Of a DNA stretch of 64,000 nucleotides, positions 2,877-59,820 are shown piece after piece (within the stretch, counting starts at the first letter, position 1; the number at the start of each line of letters is the position of its first letter). The notes under the pieces are model-generated. The model worked only from the letters and a program-made list of their open reading frames with translations, was not told the DNA's origin and did no database searches. A program made the translations under genes and the position numbers. Source of the DNA: an uncultured Acidobacteriota bacterium (lineage in GTDB: Bacteria; Acidobacteriota; Vicinamibacteria; Vicinamibacterales; UBA2999); assembly GCA_963786365.1 (NCBI GenBank), contig CAWAYR010000018.1, positions 596,078 through 660,077 on the forward strand. The letters run 5' to 3'.

Positions 2877-3016
2877 GCAGGGCCCGGGACTCAGGTCCCG
2901 GCGGCTCGGGACGAACGGAGCCGGCGATCACGCTGTACGCCGGCGCCGGGCCGTGTTTCGTGTACGGCAGCTCGCCGACGTCAGCTCGATCCCGAGACGC
3001 CGAGTCCGCGAGTCCG

Positions 3017-3680
3017 CTAGCCCCGGCCTTGTCGCGCACGAGCGCGCACCACCTGCGCGACCACCTGCTCGATCGGCACGCCGGTGGTGTCGATGTAGAC
3101 CGCGTCGGCGGCCCTGATGAGCGGCGAGACGCTGCGGCTCGAGTCCGACTTGTCGCGGGCCGCCAGCCCCTCGGCAACGTGGGCGACGTCCGCGCCGCTT
3201 CCGGCGTGGGCGGGATCGGCCGCCCGGCGCCGGGCCCGCTCTTCGGGCGACGCGTCGAGATAGACCTTCACGTCGGCGGCCGGGAAGACGACGGTGCCGA
3301 TATCGCGCCCTTCCATCACCACCCCGCCGCCCTGTCCCAAGGCGCGCTGCCGCTCGACCAGCGCCGCCCGCACCTCGGCGATGCGGGCGACGGCGGCCGA
3401 GGCCATGTCGATCTCCGGCGTGCGAATCGCCTGCGTGACGTCGTGGCCGTCGATGCGCACCGCGCCGTCGCTGACGTCGATGCCCGACTCGCGCGCGATG
3501 CCGGGCGGCGTCGCCGGAGGCGTCGAGCCGGCCGCGACGCTGCACGACCATCCAGGCGACCGCCCGGTACATCGCGCCGGTGTCGACGTGCGTGTAGCCG
3601 AGCGCGAGCGCGGTGGCACGCGCCACGGTGCCCTTGCCCGCGCCCGAGGGTCCGTCGACGGCGACGATCAGGCGCTTCAC
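3017..3680 (-). CDS. cmk: Cytidylate kinase (frameshifted)
   Basis: [15 protein letters not shown]-loop, [33 protein letters not shown] motifs spread over two frames. Confidence 0.93.
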
Positions 3681-3707
3681 AACCGGTCAGTGTAACATGC
3701 GCCCCCG

Positions 3708-4919
3708 GTGCTGATCGCCCGCGCGCTGCGCGTCTGGCTCGTCGTCGTGGCCGTGGTCGCCGCTGCCGGCTACGCCGCGCTGCCCTATGTCGACGCCGCG
3801 GCGTTCATCGTCCGCGCCGCCAACCTGACCGACGGCTTTGCCGGGCGCGTCGCCGCGTGCGCGGGCTCACGCCGTGACGCGGACCGATCTGCCGCCGATC
3901 CCGACGCGACACGGCGCCGTACCGGCGCGGCTGTTCCGCCCGGCGCGCTTCTCGCGCACGGTCGCTGCTCGCGCCGGGCGTGCACATGGACGGCATCGAC
4001 GAGACGCGGCTGGTCGGCATGGCCGAGGATCTCGCCGCCACCGGCTACGCCGTCGTCACCGTCGCGCCGCCCGATCTGCGTCAGTTCCGCATCACGCCCG
4101 AGAACACCGACGTGCTCGAGGACGCCGCGCGGTGGCTGGCCGGCCGCGCCGACCTCGCGCCCGACGGCAGGGTCGGCCTGATGGGCATCAGCTTCTCCGG
4201 CGGCCTGTCGATCGTCGCCGCCGGGCGGCCGGCGCTGCGCGATCACGTCGCCTTCGTCATGTCCTTCGGCGGCCACGGCGACCTGATCCGCGTGATGCGC
4301 TACCTGTGCTCGGGAAAGGCGCCGGCGGCCGATCCCGGCGCGGCGGCGGCCGACATCACCGGCATCGAACACCTGTCCGTGCATCCACCGCACGACTACG
4401 GCGTCACCGTGGTGCTGCTCACGTTCGCCGATCGCGTCGTGCCGGCCGCGCAGGTGCAGCCGCTGCGCGACGGCATCGGCATCTACCTGCGCGCCTCGTC
4501 GCTCACGCTCGTGGATCAACAGCTGGCCGAGGCGGAGTTCGCGCGGGCACGGGAGTACGCGGCGACGCTCGACGAACCGGCGCGTACGCTGATGACCCAC
4601 GTCAACGACCGCGCGGTGGACAAGCTGGGCCCGCTGCTGCTTCCCGATCGTCGACGGCCTCGACGACCACCCGAGCGCGCCGTCGCTGTCGCCGGAACGG
4701 GCCCCGCCGCCGGCGGCGCCGGTGTTCCTGCTGCACGGCGCCGACGACACGGTGATTCCCACGGTGGAAACGGTGCTGCTCGCCCGCTACCTCCACGGGC
4801 GCACCCCGGTGCGGGCGCTGCTGAGCGGCCTGATCACCCACGCCGAGGTCGATCGGTCGGCGGCCGCTGCCGACGTCTGGCAGCTGACGACCTTCTGGCG
4901 CGAGCTCATGAAATACTAG
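3708..4919 (+). CDS. Alpha/beta-hydrolase fold protein with N-terminal membrane anchor (frameshifted)
   Basis: GISFSGG nucleophile-elbow-like motif; FLLHGADDTVIP and ITHAE acid/His motifs. Confidence 0.7.
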
Positions 4920-4928
4920 GCTCGCGCC

Positions 4929-4956
4929 GGGGACTGGGGGCTCGGGGCTCGGGGCT
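4929..4956. repeat. Heptamer tandem array, 4 x (C/G)GGG(G/A)CT
   Basis: ggggact-gggggct-cggggct-cggggct immediately after the hydrolase stop. Confidence 0.85.
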
Positions 4957-6707: not shown

Positions 6708-7657
6708 CCGCGTTCGTCCTCGTCCTCGTCGTCGTCCGGGTCAGCGTCCTCGTCGCCGGCGGGTTCGTCGTCGAACACCGGCGCCGAGGGCGGCGGCACC
6801 GCGGCGGCCCGGGCCGCGGCATGGTGCGCGTTGTACTCGTCCTCGGGGTCGTGGATCGGGTGCGGCGCGTCCTTGGGCCGCGCCCGCTTGTAGATGCGAA
6901 TCGCCCCGGCGCCCTGCTGGAACACCCGCACCAGCTTCAGCCGGATCATCTCCAGGATCGCCAGGAACGTCACGATCAGGTCGCCGCGCGACGCGACGTC
7001 CTCGAACAGGTCCTCGAAGCCGCAGGCCTCGGTCTCCGACAGCCGCTCCAGCAGCTGCTCGATCCGCGTCTCGATCGAGATCTGCTCCGGCGGCAGCGGC
7101 ATCGACGGCTGGTCCTTCGAGCGCTCCAGCACGCGGCGGAACGCGGCCAGCAGCCCGAAGAGGTCGACGTCGAGCTCGGGCTCGACCGGCTCGCCGGCAA
7201 TCGCCTCGACGCGGGCGTCGGGCCGCGTCCACTGGGCGCTGCGCAGCGTCTCGCGCTCGTGCAGCAGCTCGGCCGCCGCCTTGAAGCGCTGATGCTCGAC
7301 CAGCCGCCGGACCAGCGCGTCGCGCGGGTCGATCTCCTCGTCCTCGACGCCGGCCGCCGACTCGGGTCGCGGCAGCAGCTGCCGGCTCTTGATGTGGATG
7401 AGCGTGGCGGCGGTGACCAGGAACTCGCTGGCGACGTCGAGGTTCAGCTCCTGCATCAGGTTCAGGTACTGCAGGTACTGCTCGGTGATGAGCGCGATCG
7501 GGATGTCGTAGACGTTGACTTCGTTCTTCTTGATCAGGTGCAGCAGCAGATCGAGCGGACCCTCGAAGCTCTCGAGGCGCAGCGTGATCGCGTCGAGCTG
7601 CGACTCGAAGCCTTCGGCCGCCGACCGTTCGCCCTGTTTGTCCGAGGTGTCGCTCAT
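6704..7657 (-). CDS. scpA: Segregation and condensation protein ScpA
   Basis: FEGPLDLLLHLIKK, ASEFLVTAATLIHIKSRQLLP, IVTFLAILEM. Confidence 0.95.
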   Translation of the reverse strand: MSDTSDKQGERSAAEGFESQLDAITLRLESFEGPLDLLLHLIKKNEVNVYDIPIALITEQYLQYLNLMQELNLDVASEFLVTAATLIHIKSRQLLPRPESAAGVEDEEIDPRDALVRRLVEHQRFKAAAELLHERETLRSAQWTRPDARVEAIAGEPVEPELDVDLFGLLAAFRRVLERSKDQPSMPLPPEQISIETRIEQLLERLSETEACGFEDLFEDVASRGDLIVTFLAILEMIRLKLVRVFQQGAGAIRIYKRARPKDAPHPIHDPEDEYNAHHAAARAAAVPPPSAPVFDDEPAGDEDADPDDDEDEDERG

Positions 7658-7673
7658 GGTCGTGCGCCGTCTG

Positions 7674-8666
7674 CTAGTAGCGGAGCTTCATCGCGGCCCG
7701 CACCCGCTCCATGGTCTCGATCGCCACGAGGCGGGCCCGCCTCGAGCCCTCGACCATCACCTCGCGAAGGTAGCCTGGCCGGGCCAGTGCCGCCTCCCGC
7801 CGCTCGCGGATCGGCTCGAGCATCAGGTTGATCGCCGCCGCCAGCTTGGTCTTGACCTCGACGTCGCCAACCTGGCCGGCGGCATAACGGGCCTTCAGGT
7901 CCTCGACCTCGTCGCGGTTGCGGTTGAAGGCGGTGTGATAGGTGAACACCGGGTTGCCCTCGACCGTGCCGGGGATGTCGGCGCGCACCCGCTTCGGGTC
8001 GGTGTACATCTGCCGCACCTTCTTCACCACCGTCGCCGCGTCGTCGGAGAGGTCGATGGTGTTGGCGTAGCTCTTGCTCATCTTGCGGTTGTCGAGCCCG
8101 GGCAGCCGCGACGTCGAGGTGAGCATCGTCTCGGGCTCGACCAGCACCTCGGCGAAGATGTTGTTGAAGCGGCGCACCACCTCGCGCGACAGCTCGAGGT
8201 GCGGCGCCTGGTCGTCACCCACCGGCACGAAGTTGGCGTCGTACATGGTGACATCGGCGGTCTGCAGCAGCGGATAGCCGAGGAAGCCGATGCTGCCCAG
8301 GTCGCGCTCGGTGAGCTGATCGATCAGCTCCTTGTAGGTGGGCACGCGCTCCAGCCAGGGGATCGGCGTGACCATCTGCAGCAGCAGGTAGAGCTCGGCG
8401 TGCTCGGGGATCATCGACTGCACGAAGATCGTGCTCCGCTCGGGATCGATGCCGGCGCCGATCCAGTCGGCAAGATTGTCGACCGCGTTGGCCGTGAGCT
8501 CCGAGGTGTCGTTGAAATGGCTGGTCAGCGCGTGCCAGTCGGCGACGAAGTAAAAGCAGTCGTAGTCGCGCTGCAGCGCGACCCAGTTGTCGAGCGCGCC
8601 CGCCAGGTGCCCGAGGTGCAGCTTGCCCGTCGGGCGCATGCCCGACACCACGCGTTTCCTGGTCAC
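7674..8666 (-). CDS. trpS: Tryptophan--tRNA ligase
   Basis: SGMRPTGKLHLGH (HIGH-like), VPVGDDQ, KMSKS. Confidence 0.96.
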   Translation of the reverse strand: MTRKRVVSGMRPTGKLHLGHLAGALDNWVALQRDYDCFYFVADWHALTSHFNDTSELTANAVDNLADWIGAGIDPERSTIFVQSMIPEHAELYLLLQMVTPIPWLERVPTYKELIDQLTERDLGSIGFLGYPLLQTADVTMYDANFVPVGDDQAPHLELSREVVRRFNNIFAEVLVEPETMLTSTSRLPGLDNRKMSKSYANTIDLSDDAATVVKKVRQMYTDPKRVRADIPGTVEGNPVFTYHTAFNRNRDEVEDLKARYAAGQVGDVEVKTKLAAAINLMLEPIRERREAALARPGYLREVMVEGSRRARLVAIETMERVRAAMKLRY

Positions 8667-9296: not shown

Positions 9297-9360
9297 AGCG
9301 CATCAGCGTACCACAGCGCCACCGGCTCGCGCAGCCGTCGCGCGCGGCTGCCGCGCGCGA

Positions 9361-11304
9361 TCAGGCCGAGGTCGCGGCGCGCGCGAAGTGGTTGAGAATC
9401 GCGTCGGCACAACGCTCGCCGACCAGCGGCACCAGGTCTTCGCGCGTCGCCCGCCGCACACCGGCGACGCTGCCGAAGCGGCGCAGCAGCGCGTTGCGGC
9501 GCCGCGCCCCGACGCCGTCGATCGTGTCGAGCTCCGAGGCGAAGTCGCGCTTGGCCCGCGACTTCCGGTGGAAGGTCACGGCGAAGCGGTGCGCCTCGTC
9601 GCGAATGCGCTGCAGCAGGTGCAGCGCCGGCCCGGTCCGATCGAGCGCGATCGGCTCGTCGTGATCGCGGGTGAAGACCAGCTCTTCCTTCTTGGCCAGG
9701 CCGACGGCGACGAGGTTCGAGAGCCCGACCCGCTCGAGCGCCGCGTACGCCGCCGACAGCTGCCCTTTGCCGCCGTCGATGACCAGCAGATCGGGAAACG
9801 GTCCGCCGGCCTCGACCACGGCCGCGTAGCGGCGGCGGACCACCTGCTCCATCGCCGCAAAGTCATCGAGAAAGCGGGGCTCGGGGCTCGGGACTCGGGG
9901 CTCGGGGACGGGGCTACGGGACTCGGGCGGGCGGGATGCGTCGGCCAGCGCGACGGCGGTATCGGGGTCGTTGGCAAGCGCCCTTCCCGAGTCCCGGGCC
10001 CCGGGTCCCGAGACCCGGTACTTCCGATACTCCCCCTTCGCCATCTGCCCGTCCTCACAGACGACCAGCGACGCCACGGTCTCGCTGCCGTGCAGGGTCG
10101 AGATGTCGATGCACTCGATGCGGCGTGGCAGCGCCGGCAGCTGCAGCGCCTGCTGCAGCTGTTCGAGGGCGGCGGCCTGGGCGACTCCGCCGTGCTCATG
10201 GCGGGCGCGATACGACAGCTCGGCGTTGCGGGTGGCGAGGTCGACGAGCCGACGCCGGTCGCCGCGCTGCGGCACGACGATCCGCACCTTGCGTTCGGCC
10301 CGCACCGACAGCCACTCCTCCATGACGTCGGCGTCGTCGACCGGCGCCGGCACGTAGATCTCGCGCGGCGGCATCTGTTCCTCGTAGAACTGCTGCAGCG
10401 CCGCCGCGACCACGGCGTCGGGACCGCCGGCCACCTCGTGGGCGTGACTGAACAGCGTCACCCGCTCGACGACCCGTCCGCGCCGCACCTGGAACACCTG
10501 GATCACCGCCCCGCGGTCGCCGACCATCACCCCGAACACGTCGCGGTCGCCGAGCTCGGCGGTGGCCATCTTCTGCTGCCGCGCGCCCAATGCCTGGACG
10601 ACTCGCATGGCGTCGCGGTGGTGCGCCGCTTCTTCGAAGCGCTCGGCGTCGGCCGCCGCCCGCATCCGCGTCTCGAGCTCGCCGGCGAGCTCGTCGTTGC
10701 GGCCTTCGAGCAGGAAGCGCACGTCGCTCACCGCCTGGCCGTAGCGGTCGGGCGAGCACAGCTCGGCGACGCACGGGGCCAGGCAGCGCTTGATGTCGAA
10801 CTCGAGGCACGGGCGCGGACGCTTGCCGGTGATGACCTCGCTGCACGACCGCAGGCCGAACAGCTTGTGGCTGAGCGACATCGTCCGCCGGGCGAGCGTC
10901 GCCGGCAGGAACGGCCCGGCGTAGAGGTCGCCGTCGCGCGCCACCTGGCGGGCGACCAGCACCCGGGGAAACGGCTCGCTCAGCGTCAGCCGCAGGTAGG
11001 GGTAGTTCTTGTCGTCGCGGAGCAGGATGTTGTATTTCGGCGACCGGCGCTTGATCAGGTTGTTCTCGAGCGCCAGGGCTTCGACCACCGAGTCGGTGAC
11101 GATCACCTCGAGCGAGGTCACCTCGTCGAGCAGCGCATCGGTCTTGGGGTTGCTGCCGTAGGCGCCCAGGTAGGTCCGGACCCGGTCGCGCAGGGCCCGC
11201 GCCTTGCCGACGTAGATCGTCTGGCCGTCGCGGTTCCCATACAGATACACTCCCGGCTGCTCGGGCAGGCGGGCGATCTGTTCCTTGAGATCCTGAATGG
11301 CCAT
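9361..11304 (-). CDS. uvrC: Excinuclease ABC subunit C, carrying an in-frame repeat-derived insertion
   Basis: LPEQPGVY...YVGKA GIY-YIG domain, RIECIDIS, DLLVIDGGKGQL, RDEAHRFA, C-terminal HhH. Confidence 0.96.
   Translation of the reverse strand: MAIQDLKEQIARLPEQPGVYLYGNRDGQTIYVGKARALRDRVRTYLGAYGSNPKTDALLDEVTSLEVIVTDSVVEALALENNLIKRRSPKYNILLRDDKNYPYLRLTLSEPFPRVLVARQVARDGDLYAGPFLPATLARRTMSLSHKLFGLRSCSEVITGKRPRPCLEFDIKRCLAPCVAELCSPDRYGQAVSDVRFLLEGRNDELAGELETRMRAAADAERFEEAAHHRDAMRVVQALGARQQKMATAELGDRDVFGVMVGDRGAVIQVFQVRRGRVVERVTLFSHAHEVAGGPDAVVAAALQQFYEEQMPPREIYVPAPVDDADVMEEWLSVRAERKVRIVVPQRGDRRRLVDLATRNAELSYRARHEHGGVAQAAALEQLQQALQLPALPRRIECIDISTLHGSETVASLVVCEDGQMAKGEYRKYRVSGPGARDSGRALANDPDTAVALADASRPPESRSPVPEPRVPSPEPRFLDDFAAMEQVVRRRYAAVVEAGGPFPDLLVIDGGKGQLSAAYAALERVGLSNLVAVGLAKKEELVFTRDHDEPIALDRTGPALHLLQRIRDEAHRFAVTFHRKSRAKRDFASELDTIDGVGARRRNALLRRFGSVAGVRRATREDLVPLVGERCADAILNHFARAATSA
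9875..10018. repeat. Inverted pair of heptamer arrays inside uvrC
   Basis: About 7 x CGGG(G/A)CT at 9875-9927 and about 4-5 x G(T/C)CCCG(G/A) at 9986-10018, the reverse-complement orientation. Confidence 0.85.
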
Positions 11305-11356
11305 GGGCTACGCTAGAGCCGGTTTTCCACGACTGCGCGCCTCTTCATCTTAGCTA

Positions 11357-12082
11357 ATGACCTTCACCGGGTTCATCGGCGCGGCCTGCATGCTCCCGCT
11401 GCGCCTGATCATCAGCGCCAGCGTCGCTCTCGGCATCCATCCCAACGTCCTGACCCTCATCGGGGTGCTGGTCAACGTGTGGGCGGCGTGGGCGCTGGCC
11501 GTCGACCGCTTCGTGCTGGCCGGCGTCATCATGATCTGCGCCAACATCTTCGACTTCATCGACGGCAAGGTCGCGCACATCACCGGCAAGCAGTCGGAGT
11601 TCGGCGCCTTCTGGGACTCGACGCTCGATCGCTTCTCGGATCTCGCGCTCTTCACCGGACTGATCTGGCTCTACTCGTCGCTCGGCCGCGAAGGCTACGT
11701 CCTGGTCGCCACCGCCGCCCTCATCTTCTCGATCATGACCAGCTACGCGCGGGCGCGGGCCGAGTCGCTGATCGAGAAGTGCAAGGTCGGCTTCATGGAA
11801 CGGCCCGAGCGGATCGTGCTGTTCATGATCGGCGCGTTCACCGATCGCATGGCCGGCGTGCTGTGGGTGATCCTCACGCTGGCCGTGGTGACCGTGGCCA
11901 ACCGGATCTACTACACCTATCTCGAGCTGAACCGGCTGCCGATGCCGTCGACGAGCGGGCCGCTCGGCGATCTTCTGGCGCTTCTTCTTCTGGCGCGACG
12001 AGCGGGCCACGCTCCCCTACGACGTCTGGGTGATCGCCATCCTCGCGTTCGTCTGGCTGACGCCACCGGACTGGCTGCGTGA
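11357..12082 (+). CDS. CDP-alcohol phosphatidyltransferase family protein
   Basis: HPNVLT, DFIDGKVA...SEFGAFWDSTLDR signature, SYARARAE. Confidence 0.9.
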   Translation: MTFTGFIGAACMLPLRLIISASVALGIHPNVLTLIGVLVNVWAAWALAVDRFVLAGVIMICANIFDFIDGKVAHITGKQSEFGAFWDSTLDRFSDLALFTGLIWLYSSLGREGYVLVATAALIFSIMTSYARARAESLIEKCKVGFMERPERIVLFMIGAFTDRMAGVLWVILTLAVVTVANRIYYTYLELNRLPMPSTSGPLGDLLALLLLARRAGHAPLRRLGDRHPRVRLADATGLAA

Positions 12083-13076: not shown

Positions 13077-13158
13077 TGGTTCGCTCCCAGGGGTTGAGCG
13101 CGCGCCGGGAGTCCCGGCGCGCAGGTGATATCGGTCGATGGTACTCCGCTCTGTAGCG

Positions 13159-13231
13159 GCGGGGACTCTGGTCTCGGGGTCCGGGGCTCGGGACGGTGGG
13201 CAGTCCCTGGTCCCCGGTCCCCGGTCCCCGC
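13159..13231. repeat. Inverted heptamer arrays forming a hairpin between the upstream gene and ku
   Basis: gcggggact-ctggtct-cggggtc-cggggct-cgggac, a short loop, then gtccctg-gtccccg-gtccccg-gtccccgc. Confidence 0.8.
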
Positions 13232-17985: not shown

Positions 17986-18610
17986 TCACGCAGCCACCGC
18001 CGCACGCCCGACACCGACGCGGCGTCGCGGGCCGCGCACGCGCCAGTAGCGATCGGCGCCGAGGGTGACGCCGATGCGCGGCGTCCACACCACGCCGGCC
18101 ACCGCTGTGCCGTCATCACGCACGGTCAGCACGCCACGGGTCAGCATCCGGGTGTTGTGGACCGGCGTGCTGATGCCCATCGCCACCGTGAGGTTGCCCG
18201 GGCCGCGGCACAGGTCGGCGTCGCGGATCGGCCCGGGGCGGCTGCTGGCCGCCCGCCGCCGGCGCGTGCATGCGGTCGACGCCGTCGAGCGGTTCGACGG
18301 CGCGGATCAGCACCGCCGACGGGAAGCCCTCGTGCTCGGTGACCGCGTTCAGCAGATGGTGCAGGCCGTAGCTGACGTAGACGTAGGCCAGTCCGGGCGG
18401 GCCGTAGAGCGGCTCGTTGCGCGGGGTGCGTCCCTTGTAGGCGTGGCAGGCCGGATCGGTCTCGCCGATGTAGGCCTCGGTCTCGACGATCCGGCCGGTC
18501 GTCGTGCCGTCGGGGCCGCGATGCACCAGCACCTTGCCGATGAGGTCACGCGCGACGTCCAACGTCGACCGCGCGTAGAAGTCCACTGGCAGCGTCGAGG
18601 AGCGGGCCAT
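17986..18610 (-). CDS. mpg: DNA-3-methyladenine glycosylase (AAG/MPG family; frameshifted)
   Basis: [43 protein letters not shown]. Confidence 0.9.
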
Positions 18611-18617
18611 GGCAGGA

Positions 18618-21529
<2,912 letters not shown>

Positions 21530-26779: not shown

Positions 26780-26852
26780 GCCGGCGTAGCTCAGTTGGTA
26801 GAGCAGCTGATTCGTAATCAGCAGGTCGTCGGTTCGAGTCCGACCGCCGGCA
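26780..26852 (+). tRNA. tRNA-Thr (anticodon CGT)
   Basis: Cloverleaf GCCGGCG-TA-GCTC/GAGC-GCTGA-TTCGTAA-TCAGC-GTCGG-TTCGAGT-CCGAC-CGCCGGC; the encoded TCCA follows only the duplicated copy at 26888-26891. Confidence 0.95.
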
Positions 26853-26887
26853 ATCAGCAGGTCGTCGGTTCGAGTCCGACCGCCGGC
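26816..26887 (+). repeat. Exact 36-bp tandem duplication of the tRNA-Thr 3' half (att-like)
   Basis: aatcagcaggtcgtcggttcgagtccgaccgccggc at 26816-26851 and 26852-26887. Confidence 0.93.
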
Positions 26888-35228: not shown

Positions 35229-35268
35229 AGTCCCCTGGTCCGCTAGTCCGCTAGTCCCTAGCCGCTAG
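35229..35268. repeat. Degenerate 7-8-mer array overlapping the TonB receptor stop codon
   Basis: agtcccct-ggtccgct-agtccgct-agtccct-agccgct-ag. Confidence 0.75.
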
Positions 35269-38200
35269 AACGAGTACTTGATCCCCAGCTGAATGACCCG
35301 GCCGTCCTCGGCCTGTGTGATCTGGCCGAACGTGCGCGGTGCCGAACGTGCCGTTCGGGCTGGGATGAAGCGCGCCTGGTTCCAGACGTTGAACGCCTCG
35401 ACGCGGGCCTGGATGCGGTGCCGGCCGGCGAAGTCGAAGTTCTTGAAGATCGACAGGTCGGTGCGCTGGAACCCCGGGCCGCGCACGGTGTTGCGGCCGG
35501 CGTTGCCGGGCCGCTCGCCGGTCTGCGGCCAGCGTCAGCGCGCGTGAAGCAGCTGGTCTCGAAGTACTCGGTCGGTGGTCTTCGGGCCCGTCGTTGGGAT
35601 CGCAGGTCGACGTCCGGGCGCGACGTCATGTAGCGGATGTCGAGCACGCCGCCGAGGCTGACCGGCACCGGGAAGCCGGTCTGCGCCTGGAAGATGCCGT
35701 TCAGCTGCCAGCCGCCGGCGATGGCCCGCAGCGACCGCCGCGCTGTCCTCGAGCCGCGGCAGTTCGTAGCCGAAGCTGAGGACGAAGCGGTGCCGGGCGT
35801 CGAACAGCGCCGGCGCCCTTCTCGGCCTCGAGCGCCTGCTCGAGGCTGGCCTCGTCGCCCTGCACCACCGGCAGCACCGGCCGCGGCTCGCCGCCGATGT
35901 TGAGGCCCGACACGTGGTCGGTGGCCTTGCCGAGCGTGTACGACGCCAGCAGGTTGAGCCCGCGCGTCGGCAGCAGGCGCAGGCTGGTCTGCAGCGAGTC
36001 GAACCACGACTGCGCCGCCGAGAAGGTCGGCCGCACCAGCGAGAACGCCGGCATGAGGCGGGCGCCGCGCGCCGTCTGGCCCGGCGCGTAGACGCCCGGG
36101 TTCACCTCGATGAAGATCGGCAGGTTGTAGCCGCGCGAGCCGACGTAGGCCACCTCGGCGCCGAGGTTGCCGGCCGACCTGCCGCTGCACGCCGACGTTG
36201 AAGTGGTAGGCGTACGGCGACTTGAAGTCGTCGCCCCAGCCGATGACCGTCAGGCTGGCGGGAACGGGTTGGGCGGGCCGGCCACCGCGGCCAGCGGATC
36301 GGCCAGGGTGATCGGCGTCGGCGTGTTCAGCTCGACCAGCGGCGTGAACGGCGGCGACAGCACGCCGCTCTGGAAGAAGTCGCCCTGCCCGGCCAGCGCG
36401 TCGTAGAACATGCCGAACGCCGCCGCGCACGCTGGTCCGGCCGTCGCCGAACGGATCCCACGCCGCCGACAGCCGCGGCGCGAAGTTGTTCTTGTCGGTC
36501 GGCACGATGCCGCGCGGCACGCCGGCGTCGCCGGGGTAGACGAGCCCGGCCGGCGCGTTCGGGAAGACGGTCGACTGCTGGCCGGTGATGGAAGCCGGTG
36601 ATGGCGTCGTTGACGTCGATGAACGGCGTCGGCAGCTCGTAGCGCAGGCCGAGGTTCACGGTGAGCTGTCGGCGTGACCCGGAAGTCGTCCTGGACGTAG
36701 CCGGCGAAGAGCCAGCCGTAGCCGTCCTGGATCGCCTGCGGTGGTCGTCGCCCGGGCCTGCGCCGGCAGGCCGAGCAGGAAGTCGGCGGCGGCGTTGCCG
36801 GTGATGCACCGCCGCTGAAGGTGAGGTCGCCGTTCGGGCGGTTGATGAAGGCGATGTTCATCGCCTCGCGGCGGACGTCGACGCCGAACTTCAGCGAGTG
36901 CCGGCCCGCGATCCAGGTGACGTCGTTGGCCGCCTGCCACACGTGGTTGACGCGCGTCACGAACGGCTGCTGCGGATCGCCGAGCGCCGGCCGTGCCGCG
37001 CGCCGAAGAAGCCCGGCGACGGCGATCGACGGCAGGCCCGGCGGCCAGCGGGTTGGTGTTGGCGAAGTTGATGCCGTAGTCGCGCGGGCTGAGGCCGCTC
37101 GTCACCGCCGGGTTGGCGCTGATGCGGTTGATCGACACGCGCGCCTGGTTGATGACGTTCGAGGCCGAGGACGTAGTTGTGCGAGGCCATGAAGTCCTGC
37201 AGCGTCGCCAGCGCCTGCTGATCGACCGGGGCGATCACCTTCGGCGTCGTCCGCTCGGTCTCGGCGCGCATGTAGCGCAGCAGCAGCGACTGGTTCTGGC
37301 GTGAGCTGGTAGTCGACGCGGGCGCCGAACTGGTCGCGGACGTCGTTGATCGTCGGCGAGACGATGTAGCGGTTGCCGGCCGAGTTGGGCAGCGGCACGA
37401 AGTCGTTGAGCAGCCTGCGCCGCCGCCGGGCTGATGCGGCTGGCGGGAATGGTGTTGTTCGGGAACGGCAGGCCGGTCAGCGGATCGCGGATCGTGGTGC
37501 GTGCCGAAGTTGCCGGCGCGCTGCGCTTCCGACAGCACGACGACGTTGTGTGGTGATGCCGGCGTCGTTGCGGTAGCCCTCGTAGTAGCCGAACCCGAAC
37601 AGCGCGGTTCCTGACGATCGGACCGCCGACCGCGGCGCCGAACTGGTTCTGCTTCAGCTCCGGCTTGGGCTGGTTGCCGGGGGCGAAGAAGTTGCGGGCC
37701 TGCAGCGCGTCGTCGCGGTTGAACTCCCACGCCGACGCCGGTGAGCGTGTTGCTGCCCGACTTGGTCACGACGTTGACCACCGAGCCGGCGTTGCGGCCG
37801 TACTCGGCGCCGAAGGCGTGGGTCAGGATCTTGAATTCCTCGATGGCGTCGGGCGGCGGCCGCAGCACGAAGCCGGTGTTGAAGGTGTCGTTGTTGGTGG
37901 CGCCGTCCATCAGGAAGTTGTTGGACTGGTTGCGCATGCCGTTGACGTTGAAGCCGCCGGTGACGTTGCCGAACCCGCCGGGCGTGGCGTCGCCGCGTCT
38001 GGCCGCCGAGGCCCGTCGGCGGCGCGACGACGCCGGGAATCAGCGTGCCGAGCTGGGTGAAGTTGCGGCCGTTGAGCGGCAGGTCGACCACCTTCTGCTC
38101 GTCGATGACGATGCCGTGGGTGGCGTTGGCGGTCTCGACCAGCGGTGGCCTCGGCGGCGACCGTCACCGTCTCGCTGATCTGGCCGACCTCCAGCTGGAA

Positions 38201-38662: not shown

Positions 38663-40886
38663 ATGGCGCGGCGGCGGTGGCTGGCAGGCGTAGCGGGCAT
38701 GCTCGTGGGTGGCACGCTGTCGCTGTCGGCCCAGGACGCGCACCGTCACCGCCCCCGACGGCCGGCGCGCCCTGACCGCCGTCCGCGTCACGACGCCGGT
38801 CACGGTCGACGGTGTCCTCGACGAGGAGGTCTGGCGCACGGCGCCGCCCGCCGACCGGTTCGTGCAAAGCGATCCGCTCGAGGGCGAGCCGGCCACCGAG
38901 ACGACCGAGGTGCGCGTCGCCTTCGACGACGACTACCTCTACATCGGCGGCGCTCTGCCACGACAGCGACCCGGCCCACATCGTCGTCAACGACATCCGC
39001 AAGGACTTCGCCGGGGCCGAGCAGGACATCTTCGAGGTGCTGCTCGACACCTTCGCGGACCGGCGCAACGGGTTCGTCTTCGCCACCAACGCCGCCGGTG
39101 CCCGCGCCGACACCCAGATCGCCAACGAGGGCCGCGACGTGAACCCGAACTGGGACGCGGTGTGGTGGGTCGCCGGCCGCATCACGCCGGACGGGTGGAC
39201 GGCCGAGTTCCGCATCCCCTTCAAGACCCTGCGGTTCCAGCCCGGCGACGGCCACGACTGGGGCCTCAACTTCGCGCGCCGGATCCGGCGGAAGAACGAA
39301 GTGACCTACTGGTCCCCGGTGTCGCGCGCGTTCTCGATCGTGCGGGCGTCGTCGGCCGGGACGCTGACCGGCCTGCCCGACCTGGCCCAGGGCCGCAACA
39401 TCCGCGTCAAGCCGTTCGTGCTCGGTGACACGGTGCGGCCGCTCGGCGGCGACAGCTTCTCGGTCGACCGGCAGCGCCGGGGTCGACGTCAAGGCCGGGT
39501 TGACGCCGTCGCTGACCCTCGACGCCACCGTCAATCCCGACTTCGCCCAGGCCGAGGCCGACGAACAGCAGGTCAACCTCACGCAGTTCAGTCTGTTCTT
39601 CCCCGAGAAGCGCGAGTTCTTCCTGGAGAACTCCGGCATCTTCTACTTCGGCGACATCCCGCGCAATCAGCGTCAGACCAGTCGCTTCCGTCCGCCCGAG
39701 GAGGACCTGCTGCTGTTCTTCAGCCGCCGCATCGGGTTGACCGACGACGGCGAGCAGGTGCCGCTCTACGGCGGCCTCCGCCTCACCGGCCGCGCCGGCG
39801 GTGTCGGCCTCGGCGCCCTCAGCATGCAGAGCGAGGCGCACGACGGCGCGCCGGCCAGAACTACTCCGTCGCCCGCGTCCGCCGCGACGTCTTCGGCTCC
39901 TCGGACATCGGCGCCATCGTCATGTCGCGGCAGGCGGCCGGCGAGCAGCGGCGACTTCAACCGCGTCGTCGGCGCCGACGCCAACTTCCGGGTCCTGAAG
40001 AGCCTCAGCCTCAACGGCTTCGCCGCCCGGTCCGACACCCCCGACGAAGACCGCGGAGCAGACGGCGTCGAAGGCCGCGGATCGGCTGGGAGGACAGCCG
40101 GCTGCGCACCGCAGTATTCGATCATGAACGTCGGCGAGGGCTTCCGCGCCGACATGGGCTTCGTGCGTCGCACCGGGGTCACCCGGCACTTCGTCGACTG
40201 GGCGTCGTTCCTGCAGTCCGAGGCGCTGCAGCGGCACGGCATCCGCCAGCTCGAGCCGCACGCGCGCGCCTGGATCTATGTCGATCCGCACGGCGATCTG
40301 GCGACACGCGAAGGGCACGTCGCGCTCCAGGTGACGTGGACGCGCGGCACCTACCTCGAGTACGCGTTCGAGCCGCGCGCCGAGGCGATCACCTCGCCCT
40401 TCCGGATCCGCCCCGACGTGGTGATCCCGACCGGCCGCTACGACTGGACCCAGCACCTGTGGGTGTTCCAGAGCGATCGCAGCCGCGCCTTCTCGGTCGC
40501 CAGCCGCGTCACCCACGGCGGCTTCTGGAGCGGCTCACAGAAGAACGTGCAGACCAGCGTGCTCTACCGCCCGAACTACCGGCTGTTCGTCGACGTCGGC
40601 CTGCAGGTGACCGACATCGACCTGAGCGAACCCGACGCCTCGTTCGTGACCACGCTGGTCAACTGGCGCACCGGCTACTCGTTCACGACCAACATGTTCC
40701 TCGACGCGCTGGTGCAGTATCGCAGCGACATCGAGCAGTTCTCGGCCAACCTGCGCTTCAACCTGATCCACCGCCCGCTCAGCGACTTCTTCGTCGTCTA
40801 CAACGAGCAGCAGTACACCGACGGCGGCGCCGATCGCCGCCGGGCGCGGCGTGGTGGTGAAGTACACGCACCTGTTCTCCTTCTAG
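38663..40886 (+). CDS. DUF5916 / CBM9-like domain outer-membrane protein (frameshifted)
   Basis: VDGVLDEEVW, GWTAEFRIPFKTLRF, TVNPDFAQAEAD, FFPEKREFFLE, FFSRRIG. Confidence 0.85.
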
Positions 40887-41035
40887 GGGCTAGGGACTAG
40901 GGGCTAGGGGCTAGGACGCGCTATCGGCACGGTTCGCAGCGCTCACGCTCGTGCAGCGCGATGCCCTGCTCGAGGGTTGGTCAATGCAGCGCGACGCATG
41001 CACGCGCCAGCCCCTAGCCCCCAGTCCCTAGCCCC
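40884..41035. repeat. Inverted heptamer arrays (TAGGG(G/A)C x4-5 and AG(C/T)CCC(T/C) x4) flanking a spacer of about 93 bp between convergent genes
   Basis: Arms at 40884-40915 and 41009-41035 read directly. Confidence 0.88.
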
Positions 41036-41481: not shown

Positions 41482-43693
41482 CTACGGGAAGAACACGCGG
41501 ACGCCGAACCGCACCGTGCGCGGCCAGCCGATCGAGCGCACCGGCGTGCGCGCCACGTCGTAGTCGCTGTCGAACAGGTTCTCCACCGCCGCGAAGGCGT
41601 GCAGCGCCCGCCAGACCGGGCGGCCGGCGAAGAGGTCGACCACTGCGTAACGGCGCAGCACCAGCGTGTTCAGGTCGTCGTCGTAGGCCTCGTCCGACGC
41701 CCGCACCTGCAGGTTGAAGGTGACGATACGCGGATCGGCCCAGACCATGCCCGCGGCCAGCGACCACGGCGGCACCTGCGTGACCTTGTTGCCTTCGATC
41801 GCCGGCGTGGCGACCGAGCCGCGGAACTCGCTCGACGTGAGGGCGAGCTGGGCGTTGAAGCTGAGGGTCGAGGTGGCGCGGACGTCGGCCTCGAACTCGG
41901 CGCCGAAGGCCCGGATCTCATCGGAGTTGGCCCGCTGGCGGGTGATCTGCGCCGGGGTGCTGCTGATCGTGATGTTGGCGATCGCGCCGTCGAGCGTGTT
42001 GAAGAAGCCGGTCACCCGCGCCGAGACCGGGCCCGACCGGCCGAGCAGGCCGGCCTCGAAGCCGGTGAGCCGCTCGGGATCGAGCGCCGGGTTGGGGTTG
42101 GTCTGGACGTTGCCGGCACGGAAGCCGCGGTGCAGCTCGTTCAGCGTCGGCGTGCGGTACGACCGCGAGGCGGCGAAGTGGGCGCCGATCGCCTCGCGCT
42201 GCCAGGCCAGCGAAACGCGGGGGCTGAAGAACGTCTCGGTGCGGTCGGACACGGCCGGGTCGATCGAACCCGCCTTCCAGCCGTCGACGCGGGCCCCGGC
42301 CGAGAGCGTCCACTCGTCGCCGAGCACGATGCGGGTCCGCAGGAACCCGGCGGTCAACAGCTCGTCGCCGCCGACGAAGAACGGTCCGGTTTGCACGTTG
42401 GTCACCGAGTAGCGGAACTCTTCGACCGTGGCCTCGGTGTCGTGGAGCTCGCCGCCGACGATGTACGAGTGGCGCCCGACGTTGCCCACCCACTGCGCCG
42501 ACGCCTGTGTGAAGTCGCTGGGGATCGTCTGGTCCATGAGCAGCCGCTCACTCGACCGATCGGCGACCAGGGCGCTGAAGGTCTGGAAGTAGTCCTGGCT
42601 GCCGTAGGACACCGCCGCCTGCCAGGCGCCGGCGGCCACGGCCCCGCCGCCGGTCAGCGCCCCCTGGCGCCAGGTCGTGTCGTTGACCTGGAGCGGCGTG
42701 CCGTTGCCGCGCTCCTCGCGGAAGCCCGACGCCCGCAGGTTGGCCCGAGCCGAGTCGCTGTGCCAGCCGAGGTCGACGACGCCGGTGCGGTAGTCGCTGT
42801 CGGCGCGGGTATCGACCACGCCGCGCTGATCCTCGGCGACGACGTAGGCGCCGTCGGTGGTGACGCCCTCGCCCGAGCGCGAAGAGCGACCAGGCGCCGC
42901 GGCTGCCGCCGGCGTAGAGCGACCCGCGGGCCGTGTCGTGCGATCCCCCGTCGAGGAATGCCCGCACGCGCGGTGCCCCCGGGGTGAAGGTCAGCAGCTG
43001 CACGACGCCGCCCAGGGCTTCGGCGCCGTAGAGGTCGCCGGTCGTGCCGCGCAGCACCTCGACGCGGTCGATGGCGGCCTGCGGCACGTGATTCCAGTAG
43101 ACCCAGCTGCCGAACGGGTCGTTGAGCGGCACGCCGTCGGTGAGCACCAGCGTGCGGCTCGCCCCCGAACCCGAGACGCCGCGCAGGGTCACGCCCTGGG
43201 TCGTCGGGTTGGCCGTGCGCGACGAGCTGCGGCGGAACAGGCTGAAGCCCGGGGTGTAGCGCAGCAGGTCGTCCATCGCGCCGGCGGCCGAGGTCAGCAC
43301 CTCGGCCGAGGTGAGCACGGTGGTGCTGGCCGGGGTCGCCAGCCGCGCATCGCCGCGGGTCGCGGTGACGGTGACGCGGTCGGTCAGGGCCGCCGGCACC
43401 AGCACGACGCGGACCTCGGTTCCGGGACGCGGCGTCACCTCGACGCTGGCGAAGCCGCGGGCGGTCACGGTGACCGGCTCGCCGCCGCCGGTCCAATCCA
43501 CGGCCCCGTCGGCCGAGGTCTCGGCGGTCGTGCCGCCGGCCGCGACCGTGGCGTGCTCAATCGGCGCGCCGGATTGGTCGACGACGACGATGCGGGCGCT
43601 CTGCGCCGACACCCCGGTCGCCGACGTCAGCAACAGGACGGCCGCCGTCCATATCGCACCAGGGTCCGAACGCGTGTGGTCATAAGCGGTCAT
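41482..43693 (-). CDS. TonB-dependent receptor (frameshift near 42880)
   Basis: Plug motifs LRG...SRTLVLTDGVPLND, RVEVLRG...LYGAEALGGVV; YRTPTLNELHR; ENLFD; C-terminal VRVFFP. Confidence 0.9.
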
Positions 43694-43821
43694 GGGCGCG
43701 CGTGGCTGCTCGCGCGCGATGTTGAAACTTTACACCACCCCTTCCCCTCCCCGGCGGCACCCCCGCGGCACCCGGCCGATCGGCCGGGGACGGCGCGAGG
43801 GGCAAGGTAGGATCGGCGGTG

Positions 43822-49657: not shown

Positions 49658-51950
<2,293 letters not shown>

Positions 51951-58120: not shown

Positions 58121-59820
58121 ATGCATGACCGCCGTGTCGTCGCGACCGTGGTGGCGCTCGCTTTCGCCACCGTCACTCTCACGCTCGAAGCCGGCAACAC
58201 GCCCAGCCGCGCCCGCAAGGCCATGGTCGTGTCGCAGAGCGACATCGCGTCGGAGGTCGGCTGGAAGGTGATGCGCGAGGGCGGCAACGCCATCGACGGC
58301 GCCGTCGCCACCGCCTTCGCGCTGGCGGTCACCCACCCCGCCGCCGGCAACATCGGCGGCGGCGGCTTCATCGTCTACCGGGCGGCCGATGGCACCGCCA
58401 CCGCCTTCGACTTCCGCGAGATGGCGCCGGCCGGCTCGAGCCCGACGATGTGGATGAAGGACGGCAAGTACGACTACGACGTCCACCACAACACCCATCG
58501 ATCGGTCGGCGTCCCCGGCTCCGTTGCCGGGCCTGCACCTGGCCTGGCAGAAGCTCGGCTGCAAGCCGTGGAAGGATCTGGTGACGCCGGCGGTGGCGCT
58601 GGCCCGCGACGGCTTCGAGGTCAGCGACGGGTTGGCGCAGTCGCTCGAACGCTAGTCGATCCCGACGAGTTCAAGAAGTATCCGGCCTCGCTCGCCCAGT
58701 TCTCGAAGAACGGCCAGCCGTACCAGCCGGGCGAGACGCTGAAGCAGCCGGACCTGGCCCGCACGCTGCAGCGCATCGCCGATCAGGGCCCGGCCGGCTT
58801 CTACGAGGGCGAGACCGCGGCGCTGCATCGAGAAGGAGATGAAGGCCAACGACGGCCTCATCACCCGCGACGATCTCAAGGCCTACCGCGCCAAGGAACG
58901 CGCGCCGATCAAGGGCACCTATCGCGGCCTCGAGGTCATCGGCATGCCGCCGCCCAGCTCCGGGGGCATCGCGGTCGTGCACATGCTGAACGTGCTCGAA
59001 GGCTTCGACCTGAAGGCCAACGGCTACGGCTCGGCCCAGAACGCTCCACCTGGTCGCCGAGTCGATGCGCCGGGCCTTCGCCGACCGCGCCCAGCACCTC
59101 GGCGACCCCGACTTCGTCGGCAACATCCCGGTGGCCCAGCTCATCTCCAAGGACTACGCGACGCAGGTGCGCAAGACCATCAACCCGAACAAGGCCTCGG
59201 TGTCGTCGCCGTCGACGTTCTCGTGGCCGACCGAGTCGCAGGAGACGACGCACCTGTCGGTGGTCGACGAGAAGCGCAACGCCGTGTCGATGACCTACAC
59301 GCTCGAGTACAGCTACGGCTCGCGCATCGTGGTGCCGGGCGGCGGGTTCCTGCTCAACAACGAGATGGGCGACTTCAACTCGGCGCCCGAGATGACCGAC
59401 GAGCGCGGCAACATCGGCACCAAGCCGAACCTGGCCGTGCCCGGCAAGCGGATGCTGTCGAGCATGTCGCCGACCATCCTGGCCAAGGACGGCAAGCTGT
59501 TCATGGTCACCGGCTCACCCGGCGGCCGGACGATCATCAACACCGTGCTGATGACCATCCTGAACGTCGTCGACTTCGGCATGAACGCGCAGGAGGCCGT
59601 CGACGCCGGCCGCATGCACCACCAGTGGCTGCCCGACCGGCTGAGCATGGAACGCTACGGCTTCTCGGCCGACACCATCGCCAAGCTCAAGGCGATGGGC
59701 CACACCATCGCCGAGGGCGGCGACCAGGGCGTCGCCGAGGTGATTGTCGTCGGCGAGGACGGCGTGCTGGAAGGCGGCCTCGATCGCCGCGCGCCCGACG
59801 GCGGCGCCGCCGGCAAGTAG
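58121..59820 (+). CDS. ggt: Gamma-glutamyltransferase (frameshifted)
   Basis: GGNAIDGAVA, GNIGGGGF, DFREMAP, ETTHLSVVD, LLNNEMGDF, PGKRMLSSMSP, GSPGG, HHQWLPD. Confidence 0.95.

Follow-up and report, generated by a model that had tools for sequence, protein, structure and literature searches.

A heptamer hairpin repeat carried in frame within uvrC of a Vicinamibacterales lineage, probably translated and fast-changing

In this study we describe the uvrC gene of an uncultured Acidobacteriota bacterium (Vicinamibacterales, UBA2999) and the repeat that it carries. The gene lies on a stretch of 64,000 nucleotides (assembly GCA_963786365.1, contig CAWAYR010000018.1, positions 596,078 to 660,077), which is called the window below and whose own numbering is used throughout. 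The open reading frame (ORF) of uvrC contains 45 codons made of two inverted heptamer arrays around a spacer. We put at roughly two in three the probability that this insert is a translated, tolerated and fast-evolving copy of a lineage-wide class of heptamer repeats prone to form hairpins and G-quadruplexes. The reading is drawn from the architecture of the insert, its intact frame and its site, its presence throughout a clade, its extreme variability, the co-variation of its arms, its match to the genome's own heptamers and the invariance of the corresponding loop in a sister clade. The gene and the parts of the insert are as follows.

Positions 9361 to 11304, minus strand: uvrC, one unbroken ORF of 647 codons (647 amino acids).
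Positions 9877 to 10011, minus strand: in-frame insert of 45 codons, residues 432-476, with YRKYRV on one side and RFLDDFAAM on the other.
Positions 9986 to 10018, minus strand: 5' arm in the sense of the gene, G-rich heptamers GGGTCTC/GGGACCC/GGGGCCC/GGGACTC encoding SGPGARDSG.
Positions 9936 to 9985, minus strand: spacer, unique, encoding roughly RALANDPDTAVALADAS.
Positions 9875 to 9935, minus strand: 3' arm in the sense of the gene, C-rich heptamers CCCCGAG/TCCCGAG encoding RPPESRSPVPEPRVPSPEP; G-rich on the plus strand, 7.6 copies.

All UvrC domains are present by Pfam, namely GIY-YIG, UVR, the inactive and the active RNase H-like domains and HhH (PF01541, PF02151, PF22920, PF08459 and PF14520), and the protein matches PDB structures with E-values of 1e-44 to 1e-31. 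The match to PF08459, the model of the C-terminal RNase H endonuclease, is broken into two stretches by the insert. The residue identity of the Asp-Asp-His (DDH) triad was taken from PMC10085695. In this protein the triad is D400 (IDIS), D510 (VIDGG) and H572 (EAHRF), which align to conserved columns of 3c65, 2nrt and 8b0q; among 120 orthologues D400 and H572 are invariant and D510 is kept in at least 90%. The insert is located between the first and the second Asp. In all three solved C-terminal halves of UvrC (3c65, 2nrt, 8b0q) the strand that flanks this site ends Y-R/K-x-Y/F-K/R-V/I, the helix starts with DD(Y/F), and 3-5 residues separate the YRKY-type strand from the DD(F/Y) motif. Eight Acidobacteriota loci outside Vicinamibacterales have 6-7 residues at the site, whereas the window UvrC has 48. 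Since R-F-L before DDF is nearly invariant and ancestral in the clade, the insert proper is counted as 45 residues and not 48. From the alignment, the insert appears to fall in the short connection that leads from the third strand to the first helix of the 5'-incision domain (C-terminal, RNase H-like); the conserved DD motif comes just downstream of it. The insert is rich in G/P/S/R/A/D/E (84%, versus 53% in the remaining UvrC) and 11% of it is hydrophobic. An intein, an intron or a known inserted domain was rejected, because residues 433-479 contain no Pfam domain and their composition is of low complexity. A preliminary description, made from the window sequence, had reported an unbroken 647-residue ORF, motifs that are normally only a few residues apart and an addition of about 45 residues. 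All three statements stand, the last with boundaries now set by orthologue alignment, and its reading of residues 432-479 agrees exactly with ours.

On the plus strand the order is a G-rich array of period 7, a spacer of about 50 nt and a reverse-complementary array. Tandem Repeats Finder (TRF) reported period-7 arrays at 9875-9927 (7.6 copies, 81% matches, unit CGGGGCT) and at 9993-10018 (3.7 copies). The inverted arms at 9875-9915 and 9977-10017 are 41 nt each, 78% complementary and 61 nt apart, and sub-arms of 25 nt are 88% complementary. The element thus has terminal inverted repeats, a feature of Rickettsia palindromic elements (RPE) and miniature inverted-repeat transposable elements (MITE). 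The segment folds as one long hairpin, at -83 kcal/mol as RNA (z = -3.5) and -54 kcal/mol as DNA (z = -5.2), and in either case none of 200 shuffles was as good. Runs of three or more G number 6 on the sense strand and 13 on the opposite strand, with a canonical G-quadruplex motif on each, so that both strands are candidates for that fold by motif; the six sense-strand runs are those of the 5' arm. In the window as a whole, seven G-tract heptamer arrays were counted, where 200 dinucleotide-preserving shuffles average 0.43 and reach at most 3, and three convergent array pairs, where all 200 shuffles have none. Under a stricter rule (at least four units, at most one mismatch) there are six arrays against a mean of 0.02 in 100 shuffles. 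Arrays and convergent pairs are therefore far beyond chance, and the arrays found by TRF, the complementary arms and the shuffles together bear out the earlier picture of two inverted heptamer arrays around a spacer. A terminator and promoter scan of 9300-11400 found nothing. Rfam at the gathering threshold gave only a tRNA-Thr in the whole window, and at E <= 1 over 9700-10200 one chance-level miRNA match outside the insert.

The insert is not private to this genome. We compared the 120 best UvrC matches (67-91% identity; those with names are metagenome-assembled genomes (MAGs) of Vicinamibacterales), all of them predicted proteins from metagenomes; they carry P numbers below, and the related loci L numbers. 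A loop is present at the site in 120 of 120, with 5-67 residues and a median of 28. These loops are mostly encoded by heptamers, of which at least 12 types occur. An exact window of nine residues that can be translated from a perfect heptamer array was found in the loop of 31 of the 120 proteins and in the other approximately 600 residues of none. Inserts of 45 residues with the same spacer occur in independent assemblies (P0002, P0003, P0004, P0014 and P0037), and locus L001, on a contig of 3.7 Mb, has the same architecture. Several genes of the window are frame-broken, which is what an assembly or sequencing artefact has in its favour; in view of these independent copies we give that explanation next to no credence. 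In P0037 the window insert type recurs, spacer included, at about 71% identity in a backbone that is about 77% identical, so this type is old. The preliminary description had proposed that a palindromic repeat was inserted into a conserved repair enzyme. That the insert is an in-frame, stop-free member of the repeat class is upheld; the event is neither recent nor private, given a loop that varies in 120 of 120 orthologues. To judge from the predicted orthologues, the event is old and what is unusual is the turnover.

Among the 75 loops of at least 24 residues, both ends appear to be heptamer-encoded in 53. The heptamers deduced for the N-side and the C-side are reverse complements within 1 nt in 32 of these 53, against 29% under random re-pairing, a comparison that is not a probability, as the rows are related by descent. 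Deduced from predicted proteins in this way, the two arms co-vary. The picture differs in a sister clade represented by L008. There 113 of the 120 nearest UvrC relatives have 602-604 residues, and the loop SPANHAGS is identical in 10 of 10 aligned L008-like proteins, including all seven length outliers, whose extra length is at the termini. Since this clade lacks the element and its loop of 8 residues is invariant, hypervariability goes with the element and not with the position in the fold.

Arms that stay complementary while their sequence is replaced are also what would be expected if it were the structure that is kept and not the peptide. The hairpin or G-quadruplex could then have a role at the level of nucleic acid, as a translational pause between folding units, in control of uvrC mRNA stability or expression, or as a structure sensed by the repair machinery. 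The persistence of the element at this site across the clade fits such a role. So do a preprint on Nostoc in which heptamer repeats are proposed to regulate recF and recO (bioRxiv 10.1101/2022.06.06.494920) and the G-quadruplex formation in vitro of related heptamers given by Rehm et al. (PMC4692102). We consider this unlikely, however, because most or all of the element has been lost from many members of the clade (loops of 5-14 residues in P0101, P0118, P0086 and P0024; SGPEPRF in L002), the sister clade manages without it, template switching would hold the arms complementary without selection, and the scans above gave neither a terminator-like site in 9300-11400 nor an Rfam family for the insert in 9700-10200. 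In L002 the UvrC loop (4370-4400) is SGPEPRF only, and at the DNA level it is a minimal palindrome of two units, the outermost one from each arm. This resembles a hairpin excision that left the base, and the short loops of P0082, P0083 and P0063 have the same form.

A genome scan gave at least about ten Vicinamibacterales loci. One of them, L001 (89% amino acid identity in UvrC, 85% nucleotide identity, synteny over 22 kb), has the element at the same site in uvrC, built of GGGAACA/TGTTCCC, and it folds equally well (z = -3.6). This heptamer recurs in an element at the 3' end of L001 cmk and in an L002 element after rpsA. Of the 13-mers of the L001 insert, 16 recur elsewhere in L001 and 3 in the window; of those of the window insert, 11 recur elsewhere in the window and none in L001. 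The uvrC of L005 has a direct CCCGAGT array of 17.6 copies without an inverted arm, and CCCGAGT units also stand just after the gene. In three of four genomes the uvrC heptamer matches the flanking arrays of the same genome. Short or non-repeat UvrC loops were found in L003, L004, L006 and L008. Vicinamibacterales-like DNA (241 kb) has 42 period-7 arrays of 3 copies or more, or 17.4 per 100 kb, and the other 70 loci (1.24 Mb) have 36, or 2.9 per 100 kb. In L069, an inverted pair with 13.7 copies in each array (GTTCCGG / GGAACCT; 7566-7660 and 8201-8294) lies about 540 nt apart.

Six further heptamer-array sites are present in the window, all at 3' ends of genes.

Positions 56 to 83: one array, AGCCGCT x4, 6 nt past the rpsA stop; a second arm would fall outside the window edge.
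Positions 2880 to 3024: degenerate two-armed element at the 3' end of cmk.
Positions 4928 to 4956: one-armed G-rich array, CGGGGCT x4, 8 nt past a TAG stop.
Positions 13176 to 13230: two-armed element with a 4-nt spacer, 4 nt past the stop of a minus-strand ORF.
Positions 35229 to 35268: array of 7-8 nt period, AGTCCGCT/AGTCCCT, overlapping the TAG stop of an outer-membrane beta-barrel gene.
Positions 40883 to 41035: two-armed element CTAGGGG / CCCCTAG with a spacer of about 93 nt, between convergent genes.

The stop codon is thus 6, 8 and 4 nt away at 56-83, 4928-4956 and 13176-13230 and inside the array at the other three sites. At 2880-3024 the stop at 3017-3019, of the frame with the C-terminal cmk Pfam match, sits in the first G-arm unit, and at 40883-41035 the TAG of the upstream gene is within the first G-arm units. 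Heptamer repeats in this genome are normally at or just after stop codons, and the uvrC copy is the exception. The intergenic units belong to the family seen in uvrC (GGGGCTC, GGGGCTA, GGGACTA, GGGGACC and GCGGCTA), with TRF copy numbers of 4.0, 4.0, 4.7 and 3.9. The G arm comes first in 10 of 10 two-armed G-rich elements of the window, L001, L002 and L008, read on either strand. Of four intergenic sites orthologous between the window and L001, three are occupied in both with different heptamers and one only in the window. The sites orthologous to 56-83 have two-armed elements from other heptamers in L001 and L002, that of 2880-3024 has a GGGAACA element in L001, that of 4928-4956 has a two-armed GCGGCTA element in L001, and the 13176-13230 element is missing there. 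A GC-rich perfect palindrome at 13096-13120, resembling repetitive extragenic palindromic (REP) sequences (GCGCGCCGGGA arm plus complement), adjoins 13176-13230 and is also missing from the orthologous L001 intergenic region.

The tetramer CTAG is strongly avoided in the window (34 observed versus about 169 expected from base composition). Fifteen of the 34 are in four intergenic array sites (56-83, 2880-3024, 35229-35268 and 40883-41035) and none is in the uvrC copy. Arrays of the CTAG type place TAG in every frame of both strands within three units. Because such arrays close all frames, the lack of CTAG units in the uvrC copy is consistent with selection on the ORF.

These intergenic copies bear on the idea that the loop is the protein's own low-complexity linker, in which local slippage gave a heptamer periodicity that has no connection with the intergenic arrays. 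The direct array of L005, which has no inverted arm, and the over-representation of heptamer simple repeats in large GC-rich genomes (PMC4692102) speak for it. In the window and in L001, the uvrC copies have the heptamer family, the inverted arrangement and the G-first order of the copies that lie between genes in the same genome; the arms co-vary, and the sister-clade loop at the same position is invariant. A linker of this kind is accordingly very unlikely.

The preliminary description had also stated that the same element is found between genes. This holds for the heptamer family and, at sites with both arms, for the architecture but not for the spacers, so that the copies are not one element as those of a MITE or RPE family would be. 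The spacers of the intergenic sites could not be aligned to the uvrC spacer or to each other in a five-way DNA alignment. The uvrC spacer has no match elsewhere in 1.5 Mb of compared DNA, and nine element pieces searched by blastn-short against this DNA matched through the arms only, never through a spacer. The absence of a spacer common to any two copies also argues against a mobile element, MITE- or RPE-like, that was repeatedly and independently inserted at a hot spot in uvrC and whose families would be the insert types. Such an element would explain unrelated inserts in identical backbones, the same arm classes in separate sub-clades, the occupied site at 13176-13230 facing an empty L001 site, and arms that resemble terminal inverted repeats. 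No transposase domain was found among 43 window ORFs scanned, however, and no match among 72,556 plasmid records. No clean target-site duplication is visible at 13176-13230 against the empty L001 site, where the flanks are too diverged to read one. That orthologous intergenic sites stay occupied while the heptamer changes fits turnover in place better, and we think mobility of this sort quite unlikely.

Turnover of the uvrC insert was followed on a backbone tree with 120 leaves and 602 columns outside the loop. Insert types are scattered over this tree, the same arm classes recur in all three sub-clades, and the class of the C arm, in hand-made classes, changes at least 46 times against 57-74 with shuffled labels. 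Outside the loop, P0013 and P0019 agree in all aligned residues, and P0035 and P0061 in all but 3; the loops of the first two are unrelated and number 38 and 54 residues, those of the second two 64 and 18. Loop identity is below 40% in 26 of the 69 pairs whose backbones are at least 98% identical, a statistic biased by a protein database clustered at 90% identity.

Loop length that differs widely between strains, together with a unit of 7 nt that is not a multiple of three, might suggest that uvrC is a contingency (phase-variable) locus, in which gain and loss of units toggle the 5'-incision domain and give a reversible repair-deficient state; heptanucleotide repeats are among the simple repeats of Haemophilus influenzae (PMC2651432). 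We judge this highly improbable. The arrays are imperfect (78-81% matches), which lowers slippage, and 119 of 120 orthologues are in frame. The remaining one, P0026 (618 residues), leaves the frame exactly at the loop, runs for about 50 residues in another frame across the region of the VIDGG Asp and then returns. This could be a genuinely defective allele or two errors in the assembly, and the return to frame looks more like the latter. L069 and L009 were rejected as frameshift cases at the array, because their uvrC is frame-broken along the whole gene and not only at the loop.

Taken as an in-frame copy of the lineage's own repeat class, the insert probably arose as follows. Each copy of the repeat consists of a G-rich heptamer array, a unique spacer and a reverse-complementary C-rich array that together can form a long hairpin, with a G-quadruplex motif on each strand. 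In the ancestor of one sub-clade of Vicinamibacterales, a copy would have entered uvrC and stayed there. Once translated, it would form a surface loop rich in Pro, Gly, Arg and Ser and probably disordered, tolerated by UvrC and with no function of its own. Its DNA may change by slippage of units, by template switching from arm to arm, that is, quasipalindrome correction (the mechanism is described in PMC7202029), and by replacement or recombination of the whole insert. Selection would then act only on a length that is a multiple of three and on the exclusion of stop codons.

Several points weigh against this reading. Translation of the insert is a prediction from the intact frame, and the disordered surface loop is one from composition and from alignment to solved structures. 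The window assembly contains frame-broken genes (cmk and several others), so exact unit counts of the arrays may hold errors. In L069, the fourth of the genomes compared, the uvrC heptamer and the flanking arrays do not match, and P0026 loses its frame at the loop. Clustering of the protein database enriches pairs with divergent loops, because two near-identical backbones mostly remain apart as entries when the loops have diverged. That the element is retained at one site throughout the clade, while arrays otherwise stay out of coding DNA, could mean that it is useful there. Moreover, slippage and template switching are not obviously enough to replace both arms and the spacer between identical backbones, nor to bring the same arm classes into three sub-clades. 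Whole-insert replacement and recurrence of classes leave room for an active process or for exchange of cassettes through the invariant flanks. It is conceivable, though on balance doubtful, that the uvrC loop is a site where whole hairpin cassettes, arms and spacer, are rewritten or exchanged faster than by point substitution, by an active lineage-specific process that also homogenizes the dispersed arrays of the genome. Such a process may be structure-triggered breakage with repair templated from other arrays or alleles, or may involve a dedicated factor that makes or binds the repeats.

The preliminary description saw in the uvrC insert a possible general route to new peptide sequence in this lineage. 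This generality found little support. The search for periodic peptides in other proteins gave none in the window, where uvrC is the only one of 50 candidate coding ORFs (14,183 residues) with heptamer-encoded peptide. The 42 arrays of the related 241 kb are spanned by a supported coding frame only in uvrC. In L001 (18300-18500) the cmk ORF runs 14 codons through the G arm of the GGGAACA element and ends in the spacer (tail ...AGNRERGTGNRETA); this C-terminal tail is the only other coding overlap found in that DNA. In L004, an array of 18.6 copies (GCCGCAA-like, 17996-18125) ends 3 nt before the cmk start codon and was rejected as coding, because it lies just upstream of that codon. A phmmer search with the 48 residues at the site against 1.84 billion representative proteins gave no match at E <= 0.001, with a query too short and biased to judge generality.

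The closest described class is that of the heptameric G-quadruplex-forming repeats of Xanthomonas (GGGAATC) and Nostoc (GGGGA(C/T)T) reported by Rehm et al. 2015 (PMC4692102). The elements described here agree with it in structure. As in that paper, the 7-nt unit opens with a tract of 3-4 G and there are about four units per array. The arrays are mostly non-coding and just after the upstream ORF (28 nt away on average in Rehm et al.), they form convergent pairs with one array per strand that are capable of a stem-loop (70-75 cases per genome there), and length and sequence vary much at conserved sites between close relatives. They differ in consensus. Instead of GGGNATC or GGGGA(C/T)T the units here are GGGGCTC, GGGACTC, GGGGCTA and GGGGACC, and GGGGACT occurs once, at 4929. 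The elements are therefore in the class of Rehm et al. and outside its sequence family. They also differ in phylum, Acidobacteriota (Vicinamibacterales), where the units are GGGGCTN, GGGACTN, GGGAACA, GCGGCTA and others. Rehm et al. set intragenic copies (7-11%) aside from analysis, and the available text of PMC4692102 describes neither co-varying arms nor a copy that has become fixed, in frame and throughout a clade, at a single site of a core enzyme. Inverted heptamer pairs whose units are not G-rich were seen in other Acidobacteriota and one Gemmatimonadaceae MAG (L013 61-364 and 3312-3783, L020 4692-4775, L026 16828-16952 and L079 4243-4348; units AGCACTC/GAGTGCT, ACTTGGC, GAGCGAT/GCTCATC and AATGCGG/TCCGCAT), and in L013 one array stands 4 nt past the uvrC stop. 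Because these pairs are not G-rich, the design of inverted period-7 pairs seems wider than the G-quadruplex class.

An analogy with Rickettsia palindromic elements had been drawn before. According to a review of MITEs (PMC10969869), RPE are about 100-150 bp long, lie in frame in unrelated housekeeping genes and are translated, and are thought to be compatible with fold and function. The analogy holds in function, as palindromic DNA lies in frame within a housekeeping enzyme whose ORF is preserved (uvrC alone of the 50 window ORFs), but does not extend to membership in an RPE family or to a shared consensus. As described, RPE families have a full-length consensus and a conserved peptide, whereas here only the arms are common, the spacer is unique to the site and the peptide is hypervariable; the lineages are unrelated. 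REP sequences, bacterial interspersed mosaic elements (BIME) and MITEs are likewise small, dispersed, inverted-repeat, hairpin-forming and mostly intergenic near gene 3' ends. Unlike them, the present elements lack an element-wide consensus and their arms are tandem arrays instead of a single palindrome. Neither a target duplication nor an associated transposase was seen, in one occupied/empty pair with diverged flanks and in 43 window ORFs, respectively.

Cyanobacterial STRR are direct repeats of heptamers. The TAACTGA repeats of Beggiatoaceae are heptamer direct repeats too (PMC4679880). Both kinds resemble the arrays described here in being tandem heptamers dispersed in intergenic DNA and lineage-specific, with a trans-acting binding factor suspected; they are mostly direct arrays upstream of start codons and not G-rich inverted pairs past stops. 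Within UvrC itself, a lineage-specific insertion in the C-terminal RNase H-like domain is known from Deinococcus radiodurans, where Loop1 has 17 residues, is solvent-exposed and points away from the active site (PMC10085695). Loop1 comes after the second Asp of the DDH triad and before the His, and it is not repeat-encoded. The alignment, which places our insert between the first and the second Asp, rejects it as the same site. A literature search, incomplete in its coverage of subscription journals, gave no description of heptamer arrays within uvrC, in Vicinamibacterales or in Acidobacteriota at large.

Other features of the window are given briefly. The cmk gene (3020-3686, minus strand) has its Pfam match in two frames (profile positions 1-43 and 59-208), and comparison with the intact orthologue in L001 puts its last codons in a third, which suggests two frameshifts or assembly indels. 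Partial or split Pfam matches were also found for an outer-membrane beta-barrel protein (35261-36655 / 35704-36249), a TonB-dependent receptor with plug and barrel (41485-42990 / 42551-43729), a methylpurine glycosylase (18119-18649), an FGGY kinase (50307-50972) and a gamma-glutamyltranspeptidase (59014-59817). Judging from these split genes, the contig appears rich in indels, or some of them are pseudogenes. Behind a tRNA-Thr (CGT) at 26780-26852, the last 36 bases of the gene are repeated once more in tandem and without a mismatch (TRF 26816-26887, 2.0 copies, 100%), which may be a scar of integration or excision or an assembly artefact.

Of the repeats in large GC-rich genomes and in those of cyanobacteria that lack an explanation, heptamer arrays rank among the most abundant, and their origin, turnover and function are open questions (PMC4692102). 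A copy in frame within an essential-type repair enzyme across a clade is a rare handle on them, in which selection on the frame records the allowed changes and the invariant flanks permit comparison of alleles over hundreds of genomes. If whole cassettes are rewritten, the arrays would not be passive products of slippage, the uvrC frame would be a natural selective reporter, and the loop would be a strain-level hypervariable marker within a core gene. The case also shows that one point of a conserved catalytic domain can accommodate repeat-encoded peptide of 5 to 67 residues. Annotation is affected, as the domain is split by Pfam, and so is the use of uvrC as a marker gene; the finding also bears on ideas of how non-coding repeats turn into protein sequence.

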